From NCBI GenBank assembly GCA_029262055.1, contig JAJDAD010000035.1, forward strand, positions 516 through 64,515: a stretch of 64,000 nt of DNA, read 5' to 3'. Below, one piece after another: positions 13,310 through 35,145 of the stretch. Positions within the stretch are counted from its first letter, which is position 1. Each line of letters starts with the position of its first letter. The notes under the pieces are model-generated. The model did no database searches and had not been told where the DNA came from. It worked only from the letters and a program-made list of their open reading frames with translations. Source of the DNA: Candidatus Zhuqueibacterota bacterium. Its GTDB lineage: Bacteria; Zhuqueibacterota; Zhuqueibacteria; Oceanimicrobiales; Oceanimicrobiaceae. Made by a program: the position numbers and the translations under genes.

Positions 13310-15103
13310 TCAATCTCCGAGAAAAGCGACCCCGGCAGCCCCCGGTCCAGCGTGAGCGCCTAGAGCCGGTGAGACATTCACCGTTATAATATCCCTAACT
13401 TCGCATTGTTTTTCGATCTGGTCACGAAGCCATGCCGCTTTTTCGATGGCATTGGCATGGGCGACGGCAAACCGTAAATTCTTCTTGCCTCTGGCCTCTT
13501 TGCGGATAAACTTCATAACCTTCTTCAAAGAAGCCTGAGCACCCAGCACGCGGGCCGCCACTTCCACCTGACCATCCTGGGTGAGACGCAAGATGGGTTT
13601 GAGATTCAAACCACGAGCAACAATACCCCTTGACCTGCTGAGCCTGCCCCCCCGAATCAAGTATTCAACCGTGTCAATGGCAACATAAAACCGAATCTTA
13701 TTTGCGGCCGCCTCAACTTTTGAAACCACTTCATCTAAGTCGCACCCCTGTTCGATGGCGCGGGCAGCTTCCGCGACCAGCAAGCCCAATCCTATGCAGA
13801 CATTGCGACCGTCCAGCACTCGCAGCTTGCCGTCCGGCACGCCTTTGGCTGCGGTCCGTGCCGCCTGCAGCGTGCCGCTGAGCACTCCCGACAGATGAAT
13901 CGATACGGCCTGGTCGTAGTGTCCCCAAAGCTGTTCATAGGTGTTTGCAAAATCACCCGGAGTCGGCTGCGATGTTTTGGGATAGTACCCCGACTCCGTA
14001 AGCATCCGGTAGTACTCCTTCGGTGTAATGGTGATCTTGTCGATGTAATTTTGCTGCCCAAACGACAGTTGTACAGGCACCGTCTGTATGTTGTGCCGGA
14101 TGATGAACTCGGGTTCCAGATCACATGAGCTGTCGGTGACCAGGGCAATCGAGCTTGTTCGCTCAGCCGCATGCGCATCGGTGTGCTGCTTGCGCATATC
14201 GTCAAACTTCCGCCTGCTGACCTGGCCGTAACGTCCCGCTATTTCGAAAACGGTCTCGGGTTCGTTGGTGTGAACGTGCACACGCATTTTCTCGGTTGAG
14301 CCTGCGACGATCAAAGAGTTTCCGATCTGTCGCAACTCGTCTCGTAGTTGCACGCGTGCAATCCGCTCTCCTTCGATGAAACACTCAGTGCAGTATTGAA
14401 ACAAAATATCCTGGGGCATGGCCTCGACTTTAGCGCCGGAATCAGAGGAGGCGCCAATCCCGACCGCTTGTTCGATCTTGCCGGTCAACACGAAATTCAG
14501 AATGCCTTCCAGCATATGGACAAAACCCTGGGCGCCCGCATCCACAACGCCGGCTTTGGCCAGCATCTTAAGCTTCTTGGGGGTATCATTTAAGGAACTC
14601 TGGGCCGCTCTCAGACCCTGGCTGATCAGGTCAATGAAATCATGGGCATGGTGGCAATAGCTGCGCGCATGCTCAGCCCAGTCGTGAATCACGGTCAGGA
14701 TCGTGCCTTCCTGTGGTTCGGTTATAGCTTCGTAGGAGGAGTTTCTGGCCTGCTGTGCCACAGCGCCAAACTGAACGAGTGAAATACGCTGTTCGTTCCT
14801 GAGTTTCTCCGAAAATCCCTGGAAGAATTGTGCCAGAATCGCACCGGAATTGCCACGCGCCCCCATCAAAGCCGAGTCGGCCAGCCTCCGGCTCATTTCA
14901 GAAATGCTGGCGTCGTGGCAACTGATGGCTCCCTCAGCCACACTTTGCAGGGTAAGGGCCATATTGGTGCCGGTATCATTATCAGGCACCGGGAAGACGT
15001 TCATTCGATTCAATCGTTCCTGCATTAGTATTACACGTCTGGCGCCGGCAATCACAGCCTGTTTCAACCGCAAGCCATCAATATATCCAATTTTGCTTGT
15101 CAT
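13310..15103 (-). CDS. DAK2 (FakA-like) and DegV (FakB-like) fusion, putative fatty acid kinase
   Basis: N-terminus NVFPVPDNDTGTNM, GARGNSG, GVVDAGAQG; C-terminus VTDSSCDL, KTSQP, SGVLSGT, YLIRGGR, GAHAGPG. Confidence 0.9.
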   Translation of the reverse strand: MTSKIGYIDGLRLKQAVIAGARRVILMQERLNRMNVFPVPDNDTGTNMALTLQSVAEGAISCHDASISEMSRRLADSALMGARGNSGAILAQFFQGFSEKLRNEQRISLVQFGAVAQQARNSSYEAITEPQEGTILTVIHDWAEHARSYCHHAHDFIDLISQGLRAAQSSLNDTPKKLKMLAKAGVVDAGAQGFVHMLEGILNFVLTGKIEQAVGIGASSDSGAKVEAMPQDILFQYCTECFIEGERIARVQLRDELRQIGNSLIVAGSTEKMRVHVHTNEPETVFEIAGRYGQVSRRKFDDMRKQHTDAHAAERTSSIALVTDSSCDLEPEFIIRHNIQTVPVQLSFGQQNYIDKITITPKEYYRMLTESGYYPKTSQPTPGDFANTYEQLWGHYDQAVSIHLSGVLSGTLQAARTAAKGVPDGKLRVLDGRNVCIGLGLLVAEAARAIEQGCDLDEVVSKVEAAANKIRFYVAIDTVEYLIRGGRLSRSRGIVARGLNLKPILRLTQDGQVEVAARVLGAQASLKKVMKFIRKEARGKKNLRFAVAHANAIEKAAWLRDQIEKQCEVRDIITVNVSPALGAHAGPGAAGVAFLGD

Positions 15104-20155: not shown

Positions 20156-20665
20156 CTACTCGACATACATGCCGCTGCCCACTGCCACGACCTTATCGCC
20201 GAGTTTTGCTTTCATGACGTAGGAAGACTTCTTCGATGGTTCAGTCATACCCGGTTTGGGCCACATGTATGAGATCCAGCCAGAGTCGCTGGTTTCCAAC
20301 AATGTCAACATTTGCCCGGTCGGTGAAACACCCTCGCTGTCAACGACGTCAGACACATTTGTGCCCTCCAAGTCAGGACTGGCGGGGTTGCACAGGGCAT
20401 TGCCCTCCAAATCGATGACAAAGACATACTTGTCCCCCGTAAACCATTCATCATCCGTCTGGCGAAAATCGGCAAAAGCGTCTTCACCCCTTTCTTCTAC
20501 GGCTGCTGCGGCGCCGGCCACAAACTCAACCAGCTCCTGTTTTGGATCAGGCGCAGACATTTCCTCAGCAGACTTTTCCGCCTCGGACTGTGTCTGGCAA
20601 CCGGCGAAAGCCCAAACTGTTAGTGCAAGACCAAGCAGGACACGGGCCAAATAGTTCCTTCGCAT
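20156..20665 (-). CDS. Stand-alone Cache-domain lipoprotein
   Basis: Lipobox FAGC; YVFVID...NP...G...D..G...GWISYMWPKPG...K.SYV...VGSGMY. Confidence 0.85.
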   Translation of the reverse strand: MRRNYLARVLLGLALTVWAFAGCQTQSEAEKSAEEMSAPDPKQELVEFVAGAAAAVEERGEDAFADFRQTDDEWFTGDKYVFVIDLEGNALCNPASPDLEGTNVSDVVDSEGVSPTGQMLTLLETSDSGWISYMWPKPGMTEPSKKSSYVMKAKLGDKVVAVGSGMYVE

Positions 20666-21803: not shown

Positions 21804-22700
21804 ATGTTAGCCAAAATCACGTGCAAGAGCGGAATGCTGGCAAAGACGGAGTTTCTCGTTCGCGGCTCTCTTACCATTGGTGCAGCCGCCAGAAATGATG
21901 TGATCATAAAAAAGAAAACCGTGTCGAACAGGCATGCCCGCATATTCTATGACAAAACTGAGAAGCGCTACTTTCTGGAAGATCTGCAGAGCCACAACGG
22001 CACCCAGTTGGATGGTGTGCCGATCAAAGCACCACAGCGGCTCGGAGTCGTGCACGTCCTGACCATTGCTGACAAGTTCGATTTTATCTTCCAGCCGGTT
22101 CTTGCGGACGGGCCCTCGGTCGCGCCGGCGCCGGCAAAAACTCCTGTGCCTGTTACACCTGCGACCGCCAGTCCGGTCACTATCATCGAGCACCTGCCAT
22201 TCGACTCCAACGAGAGCCACACACGCCAGAGGCTCACTGCGCCTGCAACCATTATGGAAGAAGTCCGCCAGACCGGAGGAGGAAACGAACGTTACTTATC
22301 TGCCGAAAATCTGCACGGAGACGGCCAACTATGCCAGACAGAGAATGAGTACACTGCCTCGCAAGAATATGCCGTACCGGAACCCACCTGGCCGCAACCT
22401 GCTGAACAGCAGGCGCTGTCATTACTCATCCCGGCGATGCAGGAAAAATTTGTCCTTGGTCCCGGCGAGCACCTGATCGGGCGAGCCGTGGCCTGCGCGA
22501 TTACGATCAATCACCACAGCGTATCGCGCCAGCATGCCCTGATTCGTGTCAGGGAGCACTCGATGGTAATCGAAGATCTGGGCAGTAAGAATCACACGCT
22601 GCTGGCAGACCGCCGCTTGCAGGGACAAACCGAAATCGGCGCCGGCCACGCGCTGAAATTCGGCCAGGTCGAAGCAATTGTAACGCAGGAAGATGCGTGA
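21804..22700 (+). CDS. Protein with two FHA domains
   Basis: VSNRHARI...LEDLQSHNGT and IGR...VSRQHALI...EDLGSKNHT, joined by a Pro/Thr-rich linker. Confidence 0.88.
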   Translation: MLAKITCKSGMLAKTEFLVRGSLTIGAAARNDVIIKKKTVSNRHARIFYDKTEKRYFLEDLQSHNGTQLDGVPIKAPQRLGVVHVLTIADKFDFIFQPVLADGPSVAPAPAKTPVPVTPATASPVTIIEHLPFDSNESHTRQRLTAPATIMEEVRQTGGGNERYLSAENLHGDGQLCQTENEYTASQEYAVPEPTWPQPAEQQALSLLIPAMQEKFVLGPGEHLIGRAVACAITINHHSVSRQHALIRVREHSMVIEDLGSKNHTLLADRRLQGQTEIGAGHALKFGQVEAIVTQEDA

Positions 22701-22734
22701 CCGGTGGCTTTGTTAGTACCAGGGAAGAGTAGTC

Positions 22735-25044
22735 ATGCTTGAATTACAATATAGCCAGGATGGTTTTTTGCAGCTTTCAGACCCGGTCGACTTGCCCGAG
22801 CTGCTCGATATCCTGATTGTGGGTGGCGGGCCCGGCGGAACTGCCGCTGCGTTCCGTGCCAAAGAGTTGGGTCTGGCCGCTCTGGTCATCGACTTTGACG
22901 ATTTGATGAAGCGCATCCGGGACTACGCCAAGGATAAACTGATCATCCCCGCGTTCGGCGGAGGCGATCATCTGGAATTTCCGGAGGGCGGCAAGCTCAT
23001 CGCCCGACTGTCCTTTACTGACATCGACAAAGACGATATGTGTGCGCAGTGGAAGCAGCTTTATTATGAATTTTCGGTCCCGGCTCAAATCGGCGCAGAG
23101 CTCACCGGCCTCGAACCGGGGCCCGGGCAAGTGTGGCAAGTCACGATCTGGAACCATAACCTGAGTCAGGAGCAGACCCACCTGGCGCGGCACGTCATTC
23201 TGGCGGTCGGCAAGGGCGTGCCGCGCAGGTTCGACATTCCGGGTAACAGCGACGGAATTGTCTACCGCCTCAGCGAGCCTGACCACTATCTCGGCGCCCC
23301 GGCCTGTGTTGTCGGTGGTGGCACTTCCGCAGCCGAAGCGGTGATCGCGATCTCCAACGCCAAGGCTGCCTCAGAAGACTCGACACCTGTGTTCTGGTCC
23401 TATCGTGGACATAGGATGCCACGCGTGTCCAAGGCACTCGCGGACGATTTTTTCGGAGCCTACCTGGGCAATGGCAATGTTAGATACTTTCCAAAAAGCG
23501 AGCCAGTGGCCATTGTCACCAGTGCGGCAGGCAGCGAATATCTGGCCATTCGCACCGAATCGGATCCGGAGCAGACGGCGCGCACGGAATGTCGCTATCT
23601 CGAATTTCCCAAAAAGCGCTGCGTCGCTTGCATCGGCGAAGATATGCCGGAAAAATTCCTGGCATCCATGGCGATTCATCTGCGCAACGGCGGAACGTCC
23701 AGAAAGAAACGCATGACGGTCAATGCCCACCTGGAAACGCAACAACCGGGCGTTTTCGTAATCGGCGATCTGCTCAGTCCCTCCTATCTCGAAATAGCGG
23801 ACTGGGCTCCGGAAAACGCACCGGCCCAGGAGGTAAAACACCGGGGCAACATAAAAGCCGCCCTGTGCGATGGTGTGGCTGTTGTTGAGCACATCCATCG
23901 CAAGCAATCTACCGGCTCTATGTCTGTGCCCACTGTTTCAGCCTCCACAAAAGCAAAGCATGACCAGCCTGTCCCGCCGGAACCAAAGCCGGAGACACAC
24001 CCAACGACACCGGCTGGCGAAGCGCTAACCCAGGCCTGTATCAAACGCCTGCTACCCGGGGAGGTCGAGGAAGCAGAATACCCGATCAAACCAAATGGCA
24101 TCACCACCATCGGGCGCGTGGATTGTGATATCTGCCTGCCCGGGGACACCACGCTTTCAGATTTTCATGCGTCGCTGGCCAGTAACAGCCAGGGATTTTT
24201 TCTGCGCGACGAAGGCAGCAAAACCGGCATCTTCATTAAATCCGCCGCAGGAGTTGCGCGGGAATTGCCACCGGATACAACGATTAAGGCCGGCGCACAA
24301 TTCCTCACATTCGTCCTGGTCAACGGTAGCGGTTTTTTGCAGCAGGGTCAAACCGGCAGCCGGCATAGCCTGTCGGACAGATTTACCGTATTCGGCCGGG
24401 AAGCGGAAGTCGTACTCGACGTCTCCGACCTGTCGCTCTCACGCCGGCACTTCGCGGCAGCAGAGCGAGACGGCTTCCTGGTGCTAAAAGATCTGGGTAG
24501 CGCTAATGGTATTTTCATTAAGATTCGGGATTCCCTGGCAATTGCAGCAGGCGACCGTTTCAGGATTGGCCAGCAACTGTTCTACTTGTCACATCCCGGT
24601 TACGGAACGCCGGCAGGCGTCGGCACAATGCTGCCACCCGACGACCATCAAAACGGCGAAGCAGGCACGGTCTCACCAACAGTCGAGCCAGATGCCCTGC
24701 TGAACGGCCCGGGCGACCAGCTCCCGGAATCGACGGCACAGACAAGCGCTACGCAAGTCAACGTGTATGTCGAAAATCTGGGCAAAACCGTAGAAGTCCC
24801 GCCCGGCGCAACGCTCTGCCAGGTCGCGGAAAAGTGCGGCTACAAGGTAAAGGTCGAATGTGGCATCGGCGTCTGCGGCAGCGATCCGGTTAAAGTGCTG
24901 GCGGGCAGCGAGAACCTCAGTTCTCCGAGTGATGAGGAACTGGAAACACTCCCGGATATTTGTGATCTCGAACCCGGGCCATACCGCCTGGCCTGCAAGG
25001 CTGAAGTAACCGGAGATGTCAGAATTGAATTTATGGCAGACTAA
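22735..25044 (+). CDS. Fusion of TrxB/FNR-fold FAD-NAD(P)H oxidoreductase, two FHA domains and a C-terminal 2Fe-2S domain
   Basis: IVGGGPGG, VVGGGTSAAE, VFVIGD; IGR..SDFHA..DEGSKTG and FGR..SRRH..DLGSANG; CGIGVCGSD...RLACK. Confidence 0.85.
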   Translation: MLELQYSQDGFLQLSDPVDLPELLDILIVGGGPGGTAAAFRAKELGLAALVIDFDDLMKRIRDYAKDKLIIPAFGGGDHLEFPEGGKLIARLSFTDIDKDDMCAQWKQLYYEFSVPAQIGAELTGLEPGPGQVWQVTIWNHNLSQEQTHLARHVILAVGKGVPRRFDIPGNSDGIVYRLSEPDHYLGAPACVVGGGTSAAEAVIAISNAKAASEDSTPVFWSYRGHRMPRVSKALADDFFGAYLGNGNVRYFPKSEPVAIVTSAAGSEYLAIRTESDPEQTARTECRYLEFPKKRCVACIGEDMPEKFLASMAIHLRNGGTSRKKRMTVNAHLETQQPGVFVIGDLLSPSYLEIADWAPENAPAQEVKHRGNIKAALCDGVAVVEHIHRKQSTGSMSVPTVSASTKAKHDQPVPPEPKPETHPTTPAGEALTQACIKRLLPGEVEEAEYPIKPNGITTIGRVDCDICLPGDTTLSDFHASLASNSQGFFLRDEGSKTGIFIKSAAGVARELPPDTTIKAGAQFLTFVLVNGSGFLQQGQTGSRHSLSDRFTVFGREAEVVLDVSDLSLSRRHFAAAERDGFLVLKDLGSANGIFIKIRDSLAIAAGDRFRIGQQLFYLSHPGYGTPAGVGTMLPPDDHQNGEAGTVSPTVEPDALLNGPGDQLPESTAQTSATQVNVYVENLGKTVEVPPGATLCQVAEKCGYKVKVECGIGVCGSDPVKVLAGSENLSSPSDEELETLPDICDLEPGPYRLACKAEVTGDVRIEFMAD

Positions 25045-25081
25045 GTCCTCCGCCGACACTGCAGGGGTCAAAACAATATCC

Positions 25082-26488
25082 ATGCTTGCCACCCCCCTAT
25101 TGCATGAAATATCTGACAGTAGCGATGCACAGCTCATGAAAATTTCGCGATACAATATCGTCCGTGAACTAGGTGAGGGTGGCATGGGCAAGGTCTACCT
25201 TGCCGAAGACACCCAACTGAATCGCAAGATTGTCCTGAAAGTGCTGCCACGCTCGGTCGCGGTCCGCAAGACCATCATGGAGCGCTTCCAACGCGAGGCA
25301 CGGGCGGCAGCAGCTTTGAAGCATCCCAACATCGTGACTGTCTACGACTTCAATCAATACACCGATGGCCACTACATCGCCATGGAATATATCGACGGCG
25401 TATCTCTGCAGGATCTCCTGGACAAAAAGAAGGTCTTGTCACAGACCAAGGTACTCGACATCGTTCTTCAAGCCGGGCGCGGACTACGCAGCGCGCACCA
25501 GGCAGGCATCGTTCACCGGGATATTAAACCGGGCAACATTATGATCGATCGCGAGGGCTGGGTCAAAGTGCTCGATTTCGGGCTGGCAAAGCTGACCGAC
25601 TTTCAAAGACTCACCAAATACGGCACGCGGATGGGCACCATCCCTTACATGTCTCCGGAACAGGTACGCGGGGAGGAAGTCGACGAACGCAGCGATATTT
25701 TTTCCATGGGAGTCGTCCTGTATCAGCTCCTGACGCAGCGCCTGCCGTTTAACGGTGAAACCGAGGCCGCCCTCATGTACGCCATCGCACATAACAGCCC
25801 GGAACCCATCGACCGCCAGAAAAGCGGCATCAATGCGGACCTGCAGAGAGTTGTGGGGAAAGCCCTGTACAAGAATCCCGAGCGTCGCTACCAACACCTC
25901 GACCGCTTCTTATCCGACTTAAAGCAGGAAAGAAAACGGGGGCGGCCGCCAAAGACCACAAGCAGCAAGACCCGGTCCCTCAGTCCATCCGATACCATCC
26001 GCATCAGGGCGTTTGACACGGAAACTGCGCGCCCGCGCCTGAGACTGATCGCCAAGGCGGCAACAGCGTTCCTGCTCATCTTCTTCGCGTGGCTCTCTTT
26101 GGCGGACAGCGGACAATTGGCCTGGACGCGGGTATCTTCCGCGGTCGTGACATTTGTCTCGACAAAAATATCGAAAAGCGCCGGACAACCAACCTCGGAG
26201 CACCTCAGGCAACTGATGCAGATCACCGACACGGAGCTGCTGCTGCGCACGCTCGAACTCTACGAAGAGAAAGCCCTGATTGCGGTCGACAGAGCAAAAA
26301 TGAATGCTGAAAAACTGAACGCCAGCTATGTCTTTATCACCAGCTCCGAATCGGTGATAGACGTCTTCCGTGTAAAGAACCGGCAGTTCCACTCGCTGCG
26401 ATCGGACATGGCCGTCTCGACCCTGTCAGGAAAATTTCCGGGCAAAGAGATGATCTGGGTGCAGGATTTGGCTGTGGCAGGCAAGTAA
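25082..26488 (+). CDS. Hanks-type Ser/Thr protein kinase with a transmembrane helix; start uncertain (25016, 25082 or 25136)
   Basis: LGEGGMGKVY, VLK, HRDIKPGN, DFG, GTIPYMSPEQ, SDIFSMG. Confidence 0.93.
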   Translation: MLATPLLHEISDSSDAQLMKISRYNIVRELGEGGMGKVYLAEDTQLNRKIVLKVLPRSVAVRKTIMERFQREARAAAALKHPNIVTVYDFNQYTDGHYIAMEYIDGVSLQDLLDKKKVLSQTKVLDIVLQAGRGLRSAHQAGIVHRDIKPGNIMIDREGWVKVLDFGLAKLTDFQRLTKYGTRMGTIPYMSPEQVRGEEVDERSDIFSMGVVLYQLLTQRLPFNGETEAALMYAIAHNSPEPIDRQKSGINADLQRVVGKALYKNPERRYQHLDRFLSDLKQERKRGRPPKTTSSKTRSLSPSDTIRIRAFDTETARPRLRLIAKAATAFLLIFFAWLSLADSGQLAWTRVSSAVVTFVSTKISKSAGQPTSEHLRQLMQITDTELLLRTLELYEEKALIAVDRAKMNAEKLNASYVFITSSESVIDVFRVKNRQFHSLRSDMAVSTLSGKFPGKEMIWVQDLAVAGK

Positions 26489-32823: not shown

Positions 32824-35145
32824 TTATCGCAGCAAAAGCATTTTCTTTCTCGTTACACTTTCCCCGGATTCCAGTTCGTAGATAAAAATGCCACTAGCCA
32901 GCTCGATTCCGTCTTCGCTCAGACCAGTCCATTTAACTTGGTAGGTTTGCGCCGACTGTACTTCATCCACCAAGGTCAGCACCTTCTGGCCAAGCAAATT
33001 GTAGATCGTCAGAGTTACCTGGCCACCGTGTTCTATTTCGTATTCTATAGTCGTCTCGGGATTGAACGGATTTGGGTAGTTTTGGAAAAGCTGAATCTTA
33101 TTCGGAATCACTGGCCCTCTTCGTCCGCCATTCAGGACAGCCGGGTCGAGTTTAAGGGCAACCAGTTCTGCGATTTGGGAAGCGCCGCCCACCGGAACGG
33201 CGATGTGCTGAATTCCGTCGGCCATGTAAGTCATTGGTGAGCCGGCTGCGTTGCTGGGCAGTGCAATCTTGGCAATCTGCTCGCCGGTTTCCAGATTAAA
33301 TGCAAGCAACGCCGGATCGCTGTTAAAAGTAGATATTTCCGAAGCATTTCCACGCGGTGTGCTGCCACGATGACTGTTGATCCCTTCCTGCACCGCAAAG
33401 AGAAGCGAGTCAGTCAAAAGTACGAAAACGCGACGAGCCCAACCGAGGCGTGGCAGGTTAAGGCCACTCAATGCGGAATGGTTTCGTGGGCCTTCACCTA
33501 CGGCGGTGTACCAAAGATGGTCGCCCGTATTTAAATCCATCGCCGTGATTCGCCCGTACGGTGGTTTCATTATTGGCAGTCCCTGCGGGCCAACCGGCCC
33601 GTAACTTGGCGCCCCTTTGTAAGCATAATTCTGAGGATCTCTCGTGTTTTCCCAAACTCGCAAAGTCCAAACACCTTTGATGGAGGGTACGAAAATTCGT
33701 CCGGTTGTCGGGTGAACCGCTGCGCCTGCCCAACTTCCGCCTCCACTCACGCCAGGCACCGTAACCGTACCTTGAAAAGTTGGCGGCGTAAATATGGGGC
33801 CGTGTCTTAGTCGAGTCAAAATTGCAGTCGCTTGCTGACGTAACGCCGGCGTAAAGTCGATTAAATCATCAATTTCTGCGCCTTGCTGTTCGAAGGGAGC
33901 AGGTTTCGTTGGATGAGGTTGAGTGGGAGACGCAACCTCACCAGGTACATTCGATAACGGCACGGATTTCTCCTCAATCGGCCAGACTGGCTCACCGGTC
34001 ACACGATCAAACACAAAGAGCGAGCCATGTTTCGTCACCTGCGCAACTGCCTTAATTCGAGTACCGCCAACTGTGATTTCCAGAAGGTTTGGCGCCGCGG
34101 GCAAATCATAATCCCACAATCCGTGGTGCACGATTTGGTAGTGCCAAACACGTTCACCGGTTTCCGCATTCAGACAAACCAGGCTTTCTGCAAACAAATT
34201 ATCACCGGCCCGTTCCCCGCCGTAGTAGTCGTTTGTAGGCGTCCCAAACGGCAGATAAACATACCCAAGCTCTTCATCAGAACTCATTGGCGCCCAAACA
34301 TTGGTGTTGCCAAAACGCTGCCAGGAATTGTCGCCCCACGTCTCCACGCCAAAATCGCCGCCCTGGGGAATCGATTCAAAAATCCACAGCAGTTCACCGG
34401 TCCTGGGATCGAAAGCACGCACATCGCCGGGAGCCATATTTCTTGAAACCGGGTAATCCCAAATTGAAGATCCGACAACCACCGCATCGCGACAAATGAT
34501 AGGTGGAGAACTGACGCCGTACTGCAAATTACTAAAACTGCGGCGCAATCCTGTCGTGAGATCGATTCTACCGTTCGCACCGAAGTTGGTGATCGGGTTA
34601 CCGGTATCTGCATTGAGCGCAATCAGGTAAGCATCGCCTGTGCCGATAAAAATTCGACGCTCTCCTCCTCCCTCCCAATAAGCGACGCCGCGATGTAGAA
34701 AACCGTTATTCGGGGGAGAGCCGCTTTGGTAAGACTCCGGATTAAATGTCCACAAAGTTTGGCCGGTCACCGCATCGATGGCTGCAACCTGGCTGAGTGA
34801 GGTGCTTGTGTACAGCACGCCATCGACCATCAATGGCGTTGCCTCATATTTCCAGGTCCACAGATTTGAATTGCTATTTAGAATCGGTTGGTCAATCGAT
34901 TGCCAGCGCCAGGCAATTTGTAATTGATTGACATTCTCAGTGGTGATTTGATTGAGAGGCGCATATTTCGTGCTGGCCTGATCGGCCCCATACGATCGCC
35001 AGTTGCCGCCGGCGGTCTGTGTTGATACGAATCGTGCGTCAACCAGGCTGAAAAATAGCAGCAAAAATAAAACACGAACTCTTTGTCTGTAGAAGTGTTT
35101 TATGGGCCGGGAGTTTCTTTTAGCTAATTGTTCAAATCGTTTCAC
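32824..35145 (-). CDS. PQQ-dependent dehydrogenase (glucose/quinate/shikimate family) with C-terminal sorting domain
   Basis: KYAPLNQIT, EATPLMVDG, HHGLWDYDLP, GSPMTY; QNYPNPFNP...KKMLLLR. Confidence 0.9.
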   Translation of the reverse strand: MKRFEQLAKRNSRPIKHFYRQRVRVLFLLLFFSLVDARFVSTQTAGGNWRSYGADQASTKYAPLNQITTENVNQLQIAWRWQSIDQPILNSNSNLWTWKYEATPLMVDGVLYTSTSLSQVAAIDAVTGQTLWTFNPESYQSGSPPNNGFLHRGVAYWEGGGERRIFIGTGDAYLIALNADTGNPITNFGANGRIDLTTGLRRSFSNLQYGVSSPPIICRDAVVVGSSIWDYPVSRNMAPGDVRAFDPRTGELLWIFESIPQGGDFGVETWGDNSWQRFGNTNVWAPMSSDEELGYVYLPFGTPTNDYYGGERAGDNLFAESLVCLNAETGERVWHYQIVHHGLWDYDLPAAPNLLEITVGGTRIKAVAQVTKHGSLFVFDRVTGEPVWPIEEKSVPLSNVPGEVASPTQPHPTKPAPFEQQGAEIDDLIDFTPALRQQATAILTRLRHGPIFTPPTFQGTVTVPGVSGGGSWAGAAVHPTTGRIFVPSIKGVWTLRVWENTRDPQNYAYKGAPSYGPVGPQGLPIMKPPYGRITAMDLNTGDHLWYTAVGEGPRNHSALSGLNLPRLGWARRVFVLLTDSLLFAVQEGINSHRGSTPRGNASEISTFNSDPALLAFNLETGEQIAKIALPSNAAGSPMTYMADGIQHIAVPVGGASQIAELVALKLDPAVLNGGRRGPVIPNKIQLFQNYPNPFNPETTIEYEIEHGGQVTLTIYNLLGQKVLTLVDEVQSAQTYQVKWTGLSEDGIELASGIFIYELESGESVTRKKMLLLR

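Follow-up and report, generated by a model that had tools for sequence, protein, structure and literature searches.

A three-gene operon encoding an FHA adaptor, a reductase-FHA-FHA-ferredoxin fusion and a Ser/Thr kinase as a candidate input and control unit of a multihaem cytochrome conduit

The subject of this analysis is a three-gene operon in a 64,000-nucleotide stretch of contig JAJDAD010000035.1 (assembly GCA_029262055.1, Candidatus Zhuqueibacterota bacterium; the whole stretch is referred to as the window). The operon lies on the forward strand at positions 21804-26488 and, as initially annotated, consists of three open reading frames (ORFs) without internal stops, which are predicted to encode an adaptor with two forkhead-associated (FHA) domains (P0001), a Pyr_redox-FHA-FHA-Fer2 fusion protein (P0002) and a membrane-bound Hanks-type Ser/Thr kinase (P0003; Table 1). 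We propose, at a probability of about one in two, that these genes form the cytoplasmic input and control unit of a trans-envelope multihaem cytochrome conduit of the Ptd type (named after the ptdABCDEFG operon discussed below). Comparison with related genomes suggests that the structural genes of the conduit are located on another contig of the same genome (G000; 5.7 Mb, 97% complete), detached from the input unit.

The evidence was drawn from domain content, cofactor- and phospho-Thr-binding residues, conservation, synteny, co-occurrence and kinase orthology. An electron-transfer role and a tie to Ser/Thr signalling are each suggested by independent comparative lines, and three independent pairwise gene links were found: between the kinase and the cytochrome cluster, between the FHA pair (adaptor and fusion) and the cluster, and between the kinase and the FHA pair.

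The fusion protein and its family

The initial annotation, made from the sequence alone, described four FHA domains, a flavoprotein, a ferredoxin domain and a membrane kinase in a three-gene operon, and this content was borne out by Pfam searches and a hydropathy scan. Two FHA domains were identified in P0001 (E 7.7e-31, 106.8 bits) and two in P0002 (E 3.1e-17, 63.2 bits), against a cut-off of 20.7 bits. In P0002, Pyr_redox_2 and Pyr_redox_3 matched residues 25-347 (E 6.5e-16 and 3.8e-15, respectively) and Fer2 (PF00111) matched residues 679-758 (27.7 bits; cut-off 21), while Pkinase (PF00069) matched residues 46-293 of P0003 (E 9.2e-56, 189.6 bits), which also has a single transmembrane segment at residues 344-362.

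A word-index search with P0002 returned 712 matches, the best 120 of which were full-length with the same Pfam set and in most rows 45-52% identical to it; the only database names for the matches were 'FHA domain-containing protein' and 'thioredoxin reductase/FHA/ferredoxin'. An exhaustive search of 50% representatives gave 105 proteins at E ≤1e-30, approximately 50 of them with the full-length architecture and some with shorter FHA-FHA-Fer2 forms. The proteins are spread over uncultured lineages of the Bacteroidota group, together with two genomes titled Acidobacteriota and Gemmatimonadetes. Judged by these comparisons, the Pyr_redox-FHA-FHA-Fer2 fusion is a conserved, uncharacterised family.

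Residue conservation was counted over 154 full-length homologues of P0002. The flavin adenine dinucleotide (FAD) and NAD(P)H motifs noted initially (GGGPGG, GGGTSA and YRGHRMPR) are all present in P0002 and are kept across the family, with G30/G35 in 153, G194 in 154 and R224 in 145 of the homologues. FHA domains bind phospho-Thr through Arg, Ser, His and Asn residues, and the second FHA domain of P0002 (FHA2) is canonical at these positions (R555 in 150, S569 in 151, H572 in 152 and N591 in 151 of 154); it also matches structures of GarA/OdhI at E 2e-5 to 8e-5.

The 2Fe-2S domain of the initial annotation was upheld by the Fer2 match, but not with the four-Cys ligand pattern of plant-type ferredoxins (Cx4Cx2C...C). 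Only C709, C714 and C754 are invariant, and the third ligand position is occupied by Asp717 (D in 138, C in 15 and S in 1 of 154), which in alignments takes the place of the third Cys ligand found in solved 2Fe-2S ferredoxins; ferredoxin-4 (9i2a) matches the domain at E 4.9e-9. A Cys3Asp 2Fe-2S site also occurs in SdhB of E. coli. The redox-active CxxC of TrxB presumably lies upstream of the GGGTSA position in the NADPH domain, and no CxxC was found upstream of GGGTSA in P0002. The initial statement that the TrxB CxxC is absent holds for that site, although it overlooked a conserved pair, C296-V-A-C299, located on one predicted beta-strand, with Cys in 130 and 145 of the 154 homologues, respectively, and V, L or A in the remainder.

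An AlphaFold 2 (AF2) model of P0002 (predicted local distance difference test, pLDDT, 84.4) contained two disordered stretches, residues 395-431 and 624-671 (pLDDT <50). Foldseek searches with the reductase part gave matches to YpdA/Bdr and to ferredoxin-NADP+ reductases (FNRs) of the thioredoxin reductase (TrxR) type, at E 5e-21 to 1e-17 and 15-19% identity. The best match was YpdA/Bdr (7a76; E 5e-21, 17% identity), and the TrxR-type FNR structures 3ab1, 6gar, 3lzw and 2zbw matched at E 7e-20 to 6e-18. With this fold, motifs for both FAD and NAD(P)H, and an active site that lacks a disulphide, P0002 is predicted to have the activity of a TrxR-type FNR. Two other assignments were rejected: TrxB (TIGR01292), for which P0002 scored 27 bits (cut-off 343.45) and lacks a CxxC at the expected site, and the bacillithiol disulphide reductase YpdA/Bdr (TIGR04018), for which it scored 51 bits (cut-off 339.9).

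Association with multihaem cytochrome clusters

Gene neighbourhoods of the fusion were compared over up to 8 kb on each side at 20 loci of the window's phylum and 2 from other phyla; figures for 30 loci include a further 8 from the phylum of locus L009 (titled Acidobacteriota). A recurrent gene order was observed, comprising an LVIVD/multihaem protein, a cytochrome c554-like protein, a protein with two cyclic-nucleotide-binding (cNMP-binding) domains and a 4Fe-4S dicluster, a membrane protein of approximately 288 amino acids (4-5 helices, no family), a decahaem-type cytochrome, the FHA-FHA protein and the fusion, and then either a PP2C phosphatase or, in its place, a second LVIVD protein together with HbpS-like proteins. 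By described domain content and order only, the cytochrome genes correspond to ptdD, ptdE, ptdF and ptdG, and the Ptd names are used here in that sense.

PtdG(-PtdF-PtdE-PtdD) lies upstream of the FHA-FHA gene and the fusion at 15 of the 22 loci, while 5 loci, all of genus g68, are detached from cytochrome genes and contig ends truncate the other 2 (L056, from the unpublished genome G158, among them). A homologue of P0001 is directly upstream of the fusion at 16 of 22 loci and PP2C is directly downstream at 9 of 22. In the phylum of L009 the fusion was found in 9 of 251 genomes, and all 8 newly fetched loci are within a cytochrome cluster.

Co-occurrence was surveyed in 167 genomes of the window's phylum; related genomes are not independent, and no statistic is given. 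The fusion was present in 27 and PtdE/F in 33 of these genomes. PtdE/F accompany the fusion in all 27 of its genomes, and the 134 genomes lacking PtdE/F also lack the fusion. With two unpublished carriers (G158 and G162) excluded, the fusion was present in 25 and PtdE/F in 31 of 165 genomes. Carriers of the fusion are spread over families f1, f3, f14, f15 and f18. Since the fusion strictly co-occurs with PtdE/PtdF, mostly in a multihaem cytochrome operon, it appears to belong to electron transfer, in agreement with the role first put forward for it. The initial annotation did not connect the operon with a larger cytochrome system whose other genes are on a separate contig.

No genes of the ptdD, ptdE, ptdF or ptdG type were found adjoining the operon in the window. 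When the relatives' cluster proteins were searched against G000 using tblastn, a sole cluster was identified, on another contig (C106:156009-169128), with the order HbpS-like protein, 556-amino acid protein, LVIVD protein with 10 CxxCH motifs, c554-like PtdD, PtdE-PtdF, 10-haem PtdG and DUF5777 barrel. In this cluster PtdE (two cNMP-binding domains and a 4Fe-4S domain) is fused in frame with PtdF to give a protein of 827 amino acids (C106:163534-166017; L059:7534-10017), whereas PtdE and PtdF are separate genes in the clusters which carry the fusion. Clusters with a fused PtdE-F are termed type A, and those with unfused PtdE and PtdF followed by PtdG-FHA-FHA-fusion are termed type B. Counterparts of the C106 type-A cluster, at 53-56% identity, were identified in G147, G054, G055, G057, G058, G059 and G053. 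G055 has both types, with type A on its contig C2 and type B, including FHA-FHA, fusion and PP2C, on its contig C1. No FHA domains were found on C106; at type-A loci of relatives a divergently transcribed FHA-FHA protein was present in three of the four examined. Beside the type-A cluster of G147 (L082:10961-12243) there is a 111-amino acid ORF with a single FHA domain, which may be a truncated or replaced adaptor, followed by a hydrophobic ORF of 207 amino acids.

A paralogous module was identified in G000 at C45:34617-38589 (L060:4617-8589), which encodes a Fer4 and Pyr_redox_3 flavoprotein (462 amino acids), a membrane protein of 290 amino acids that resembles PtdF (23% identity) and a cytochrome in which 20 CxxCH motifs and an MtrC-like domain were identified. 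From its gene content it looks like an FHA-less form of the flavoprotein, membrane protein and cytochrome arrangement. Long Pyr_redox_3 proteins of 745 and 779 amino acids, both ending in 4Fe-4S dicluster domains and devoid of FHA, are also encoded on C74 (L003:1243-3480) and C13 (L004:1267-3606), respectively.

Origin of the kinase

The catalytic residues of P0003 (K75, H167-R-D169, D187-F-G189 and S213-P-E215) are invariant among six orthologues. A kinase gene is located between PtdG and DUF5777 in all five informative type-A loci (G055, G058, G147, G059 and G057); two further type-A loci end before this position. On C106 of G000, PtdG and DUF5777 are 19 nucleotides apart with no kinase between them. 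Alignments of the relatives' cluster kinases with P0003 (40-43% identity; E 1e-113 to 1e-128) span residues 41-486 of the latter and take in its predicted periplasmic domain, and P0003 is their top match in G000 (313-357 bits, compared to ≤250 for others, approximately 100 bits ahead). In a tree of kinase domains (28 rows, 26 distinct, the two duplicate rows from L070 being artefacts of ORF extraction), P0003 and five cluster kinases formed a clade with support 98/96, with 14 other G000 kinases outside it; the sister of this clade (96/89) was the kinase that follows the fusion and PP2C in G166.

Cluster position, best-match orthology and the tree clade together indicate that P0003 is the orthologue of the cytochrome cluster's own kinase, relocated next to the FHA genes in G000. 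A tie to Ser/Thr phospho-signalling, as first supposed, is thus supported by the membership of P0003 in a cluster-associated clade, as well as by a kinase or PP2C gene within 8 kb of the fusion at 13 of the 30 loci. Chance adjacency of P0003 and the FHA genes was considered and rejected on account of this clade membership and because there are only approximately 16 Hanks kinase loci in the 5.7 Mb of G000, which makes such an event unlikely.

The C-terminal domain of P0003 matched no Pfam family, and nothing beyond the protein itself was retrieved when 5.8 billion proteins were searched by word index; as orthologues of the domain exist, this blank reflects a limit of sensitivity. Look-alikes in a structure atlas (LpoB/CsgG/DUF3280-like) scored ≤0.83, below the level that counts. 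In an AF2 model of P0003 (pLDDT 64.6), residues 395-488 form a small alpha/beta domain.

Further FHA/PP2C(/kinase) clusters were observed in G000 at C68:30298-33853 and C86:33977-42908. The C86 cluster encodes a kinase (32% identical over approximately 570 residues to the PEGA-domain kinase of L051), PP2C and two FHA proteins, while on C68 a 909-amino acid frame with two FHA domains adjoins PP2C.

The adaptor and candidate phosphorylation sites

The second FHA domain of the adaptor is canonical, with G226, R227, S241, H244 and N263 in 15 of 15 aligned sequences. As to the origin of P0001, its BLAST scores were in favour of type-B adaptors (up to 207 bits, compared to 134-135 bits against type-A FHA-FHA proteins).

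FHA domains usually prefer an acidic or aliphatic residue three places past the phospho-Thr. The motif T-x-[ILVMF]-[DE], which was defined after 14 adaptor sequences had been viewed, was observed 43 times in the adaptor linkers of 27 homologues, which are not independent, compared to 6.5 expected from shuffles. At least one copy was present in 22 of the 27, and Lys or Arg often stands just before it. Among the 13 sequences that joined the set once the motif had been defined, 18 copies were observed compared to approximately 3 expected; with the unpublished L026 excluded, the figures were 40 compared to 6.4 overall and 15 compared to 2.8 in the added set. The linker of P0001 itself holds two copies, T126-I-I-E and T149-I-M-E, and on this enrichment the candidate phospho-sites are probably in the adaptor linker and not in those of the fusion.

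Proposed mechanism and alternative explanations

We infer from these comparisons the biochemical steps, direction of electron flow, phosphorylation sites and partner proteins of the following scheme. In P0002, the FAD domain, with its TrxR fold, would oxidise NAD(P)H and hand the electrons to the Cys3Asp 2Fe-2S domain of the same protein. Their onward route would run through PtdE (a 4Fe-4S protein) and PtdF (a membrane protein with putative haem b) to the multihaem cytochromes of the periplasm. The C-terminal domain of P0003 would sense an extracytoplasmic signal, upon which the kinase would phosphorylate Thr of the T-x-hydrophobic-[DE] motifs in the adaptor linker, and possibly its own juxtamembrane stretch. 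The canonical FHA2 domains of the adaptor and of the fusion would bind these phospho-sites, so that the reductase is assembled at, or released from, the membrane complex; in other genomes, the PP2C encoded downstream of the fusion may reset the switch. It is only tentatively suggested, as a narrower and less probable claim than the input and control role itself, that extracellular or periplasmic respiration through a multihaem cytochrome wire is switched post-translationally in this way, with a periplasm-sensing kinase marking the adaptor and built-in FHA domains recruiting the reductase to the membrane entry of the wire, and with the move of the kinase gene as a natural experiment.

Control of electron export via multihaem cytochrome conduits is understood mainly at the level of transcription. 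If the scheme is correct, a kinase/FHA switch on the input enzyme would constitute a fast, post-translational control layer, and the fusions would be the first family of redox enzymes to carry phospho-Thr readers within the same polypeptide. The named candidate sites T126 and T149 make the hypothesis directly testable with three recombinant proteins.

A number of observations weigh against an input and control role. The genomes G057, G058, G059 and G147 have a type-A cluster but no fusion gene, and the fusion is therefore not needed for a type-A cluster. The type-B cluster, the usual partner of the fusion, was not found in G000 by tblastn of this 97% complete genome. P0002 is on a long branch, 44-48% identical to all of its relatives compared to 56-69% among other family members, and given this divergence could have changed its role. 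In each FHA pair one domain is degenerate: FHA1 of the adaptor has no invariant Arg, and the loop position N497 in FHA1 of P0002 is T in 72, N in 41 and S in 24 of 154 homologues. The 2Fe-2S site has a Cys3Asp ligand set, and cluster binding there is predicted. Ferric-reductase or cytochrome-b matches of PtdF were sub-threshold only (Pfam E 0.007-0.015), and neither assignment was accepted. The way in which the adaptor motif was defined, described above, is a further point of this kind. The initial annotation would have counted it as a refutation if the fusion usually occurred without a kinase; taken literally for adjacency, this is the case, as a kinase is within 8 kb at only 6 of the relatives' 30 loci. 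Kinases are encoded elsewhere in relatives (95 matches in G167 and 14 in G168).

Some of these observations would suit a different function, in which the fusion is a redox sensor or scaffold: its FAD and 2Fe-2S groups would register the state of NAD(P)H or oxygen, and its FHA domains would relay this to a kinase/phosphatase network controlling the conduit or other targets. This is a live rival, albeit an unlikely one. Type-A clusters do without the fusion in four genomes, but clusters of this type keep an FHA-FHA protein (three of four examined) and a kinase (five of five). Separation of the fusion from cytochrome genes is seen in G000 and five genomes of genus g68, and P0002 is strongly divergent. 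The full conservation of nucleotide motifs, R224 and cluster ligands would suit a working oxidoreductase equally well, however, the fusion has no output domain, and the FHA-less flavoprotein-Fer4 paralogues beside a PtdF-like protein and cytochromes point to electron delivery.

The initial annotation placed the control inside the fusion, with the kinase phosphorylating Thr of the fusion's own linkers and the internal FHA domains binding these in cis, so moving the 2Fe-2S domain relative to FAD and gating electron flow. The kinase gene directly follows the fusion gene, both linkers of P0002 are disordered, and at least one Thr is present in linker 1 of 145 and in linker 2 of 144 of the 154 homologues. 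The description of these linkers as Thr/Pro-rich holds for Thr in P0002 itself (6 of 37 and 6 of 48 residues), but not for the family, in which the linkers are Pro/Ala/Glu-rich, vary from 15 to 111 residues, are not conserved in sequence and contain 5.6-6.4% Thr, compared to 3.8-5.4% in the folded domains. The adaptor motif is not enriched in the fusion linkers (16 compared to 15.2 expected, and 9 compared to 7.7) and was not found in either linker of P0002, and most relatives have no nearby kinase. Gating of FAD-to-2Fe-2S transfer by linker phospho-Thr was therefore not supported, and is considered less likely again than a sensor role.

Least probable of all is a neutral rearrangement, in which the kinase, with other substrates, came to lie beside the FHA genes by chance and the fusion is a soluble thiol-disulphide or other reductase unrelated to cytochromes: the arrangement was seen once, the best fold match is YpdA, C296xxC299 is conserved and other FHA/PP2C/kinase clusters exist in G000 on C68 and C86, but P0002 scores far below the YpdA (51 compared to 339.9) and TrxB (27 compared to 343) cut-offs, C296 and C299 are on one beta-strand and are replaced by V/L/A in 9-24 of 154 homologues, the fusion tracks PtdE/F (27 of 27, compared to 0 of 134 without), and the clade of P0003 and the approximately 16 kinase loci make chance adjacency improbable.

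Relation to known systems

Literature searches combining FHA, multiheme, ferredoxin and thioredoxin reductase, or linking forkhead-associated to extracellular electron transfer or multiheme cytochromes, found no paper on the fusion family among those listed, in agreement with the initial view that no system of this kind has been characterised. Under ptd names the one match was a preprint (Elbon, Stewart & Glass, bioRxiv 10.1101/2023.11.21.568154), in which the function of the ptdABCDEFG operon is called completely unknown. As described there, PtdD is tetrahaem-like, PtdE has two cNMP domains and a 4Fe-4S domain, PtdF is a membrane protein resembling ferric reductases and PtdG is decahaem, and this likeness covers both the neighbours of the relatives' fusions and the C106 cluster, matched by description and not by sequence. 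In contrast, PtdC is given as an FAD/NAD(P)-binding, flavohaemoprotein-like protein and not as a Pyr_redox-FHA-FHA-Fer2 fusion, and neither FHA nor a kinase is mentioned in the text of the preprint.

The flavoprotein domain of P0002 shares with TrxR-type FNRs (3ab1, 6gar/6gas, 3lzw and 2zbw) and YpdA/Bdr (7a76) the two-Rossmann TrxR fold, the GxGxxG and GGGxSA motifs and the absence of CxxC at the TrxB position. It is unlike them in its low identity (15-19%) and in the addition of two FHA domains and its own ferredoxin-like domain.

The FHA/Hanks-kinase modules of actinobacteria include GarA/OdhI, whose structures are matched by FHA2 of the fusion (see above), and Rv1747, in which a disordered linker that accepts phosphate connects two FHA domains. 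The adaptor resembles Rv1747 in its arrangement of FHA domain, disordered linker with Thr motifs and FHA domain; unlike in the actinobacterial modules, the targets proposed here belong to the redox proteins of a cytochrome conduit and are not a transporter or an enzyme of the tricarboxylic acid cycle. In NADPH oxidase/ferric reductase and MsrQ-Fre systems, electrons pass from cytoplasmic NAD(P)H via flavin and transmembrane haem b to an outside acceptor, and the same working logic is proposed for the present module. The module differs in that its flavoprotein stands on its own, with a TrxR fold and an added 2Fe-2S domain. The path would also include a 4Fe-4S/cNMP protein and be lengthened by multihaem c cytochromes; the homology of PtdF to such membrane proteins is sub-threshold.

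A 2026 Ferrigenium preprint describes an FHA domain on a nonahaem cytochrome and states that FHA was previously unreported with multihaem cytochromes. In a pangenome table for Gallionellaceae, 10 CxxCH are given for an entry named 'forkhead-associated protein'.

Operon layout and further observations

The coordinates of the three genes and their domains are given in Table 1.

Table 1. Features of the operon, in nucleotide positions of the window
Feature	Position	Strand	Basis or remark
P0001, FHA-linker-FHA adaptor, 298 amino acids	21804..22700	+	Pfam FHA x2
P0001 FHA1	~21858-22067	+	Pfam
P0001 disordered linker	22101-22424	+	
P0001 candidate phospho-Thr motif T126-I-I-E, in linker	22179..22190	+	Motif enrichment among adaptor homologues
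P0001 second candidate phospho-Thr motif T149-I-M-E, in linker	22248..22259	+	Motif enrichment among adaptor homologues
P0001 FHA2	22473-22664	+	Pfam
P0002, Pyr_redox-FHA-FHA-Fer2 fusion, 769 amino acids	22735..25044	+	Pfam, AF2, Foldseek, conservation
P0002 TrxR-fold flavoprotein domain	22807-23910	+	
P0002 linker 1	23917-24027	+	
P0002 FHA1	24037-24324	+	
P0002 FHA2	24349-24594	+	
P0002 linker 2	24604-24747	+	
P0002 Fer2-like domain, predicted Cys3Asp ligands	24757-25032	+	Alignment to solved ferredoxins
P0003, Hanks Ser/Thr kinase, 490 amino acids (longest ORF)	25016..26488	+	Pfam Pkinase
P0003 kinase domain	25151-25894	+	
P0003 Ser/Thr-rich juxtamembrane stretch	25928-26044	+	
P0003 transmembrane helix	26045-26101	+	
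P0003 predicted periplasmic domain, no known family	26168-26485	+	

The start of P0003 is ambiguous, with candidates at nucleotides 25016, 25082 and 25136. The longest ORF overlaps the end of the fusion gene by 29 nucleotides, while a start at Met41 (nucleotide 25136), near which the orthologues start, leaves a gap of 91 nucleotides. The whole operon is bridged, with 0-1 differing letters, by contigs of three DNA runs from one biofilm-metagenome study, which are possibly the source of the present DNA and hence do not provide independent support. Scans for sigma-70 promoters and terminators at the operon gave results no better than those of shuffled sequences.

The flanking genes are unrelated to the operon. 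Upstream, on the opposite strand, are a Met-zincin and a Cache fragment, and downstream are a 268-amino acid protein without a family and then a GARS-like gene. The Cache fragment is a 169-amino acid ORF (20156-20665, reverse strand) with a partial domain (profile positions 90-180 of 298), and may be what is left of a sensor gene on the left edge of the operon.

Elsewhere in the window, a 597-amino acid ORF (13310-15103, reverse strand) combines Dak2, the FakA middle domain and a full DegV domain, that is, two fatty-acid kinase subunits in one fusion. Sorting tails of the type IX secretion system (T9SS) were observed on several window proteins and are a pointer to the Bacteroidota group. One of these, encoded at 32824-35145 on the reverse strand, has a pyrroloquinoline quinone (PQQ)-dependent dehydrogenase propeller (E 1e-186) and a T9SS C-terminal sorting domain, from which it is presumably exported to the cell surface.

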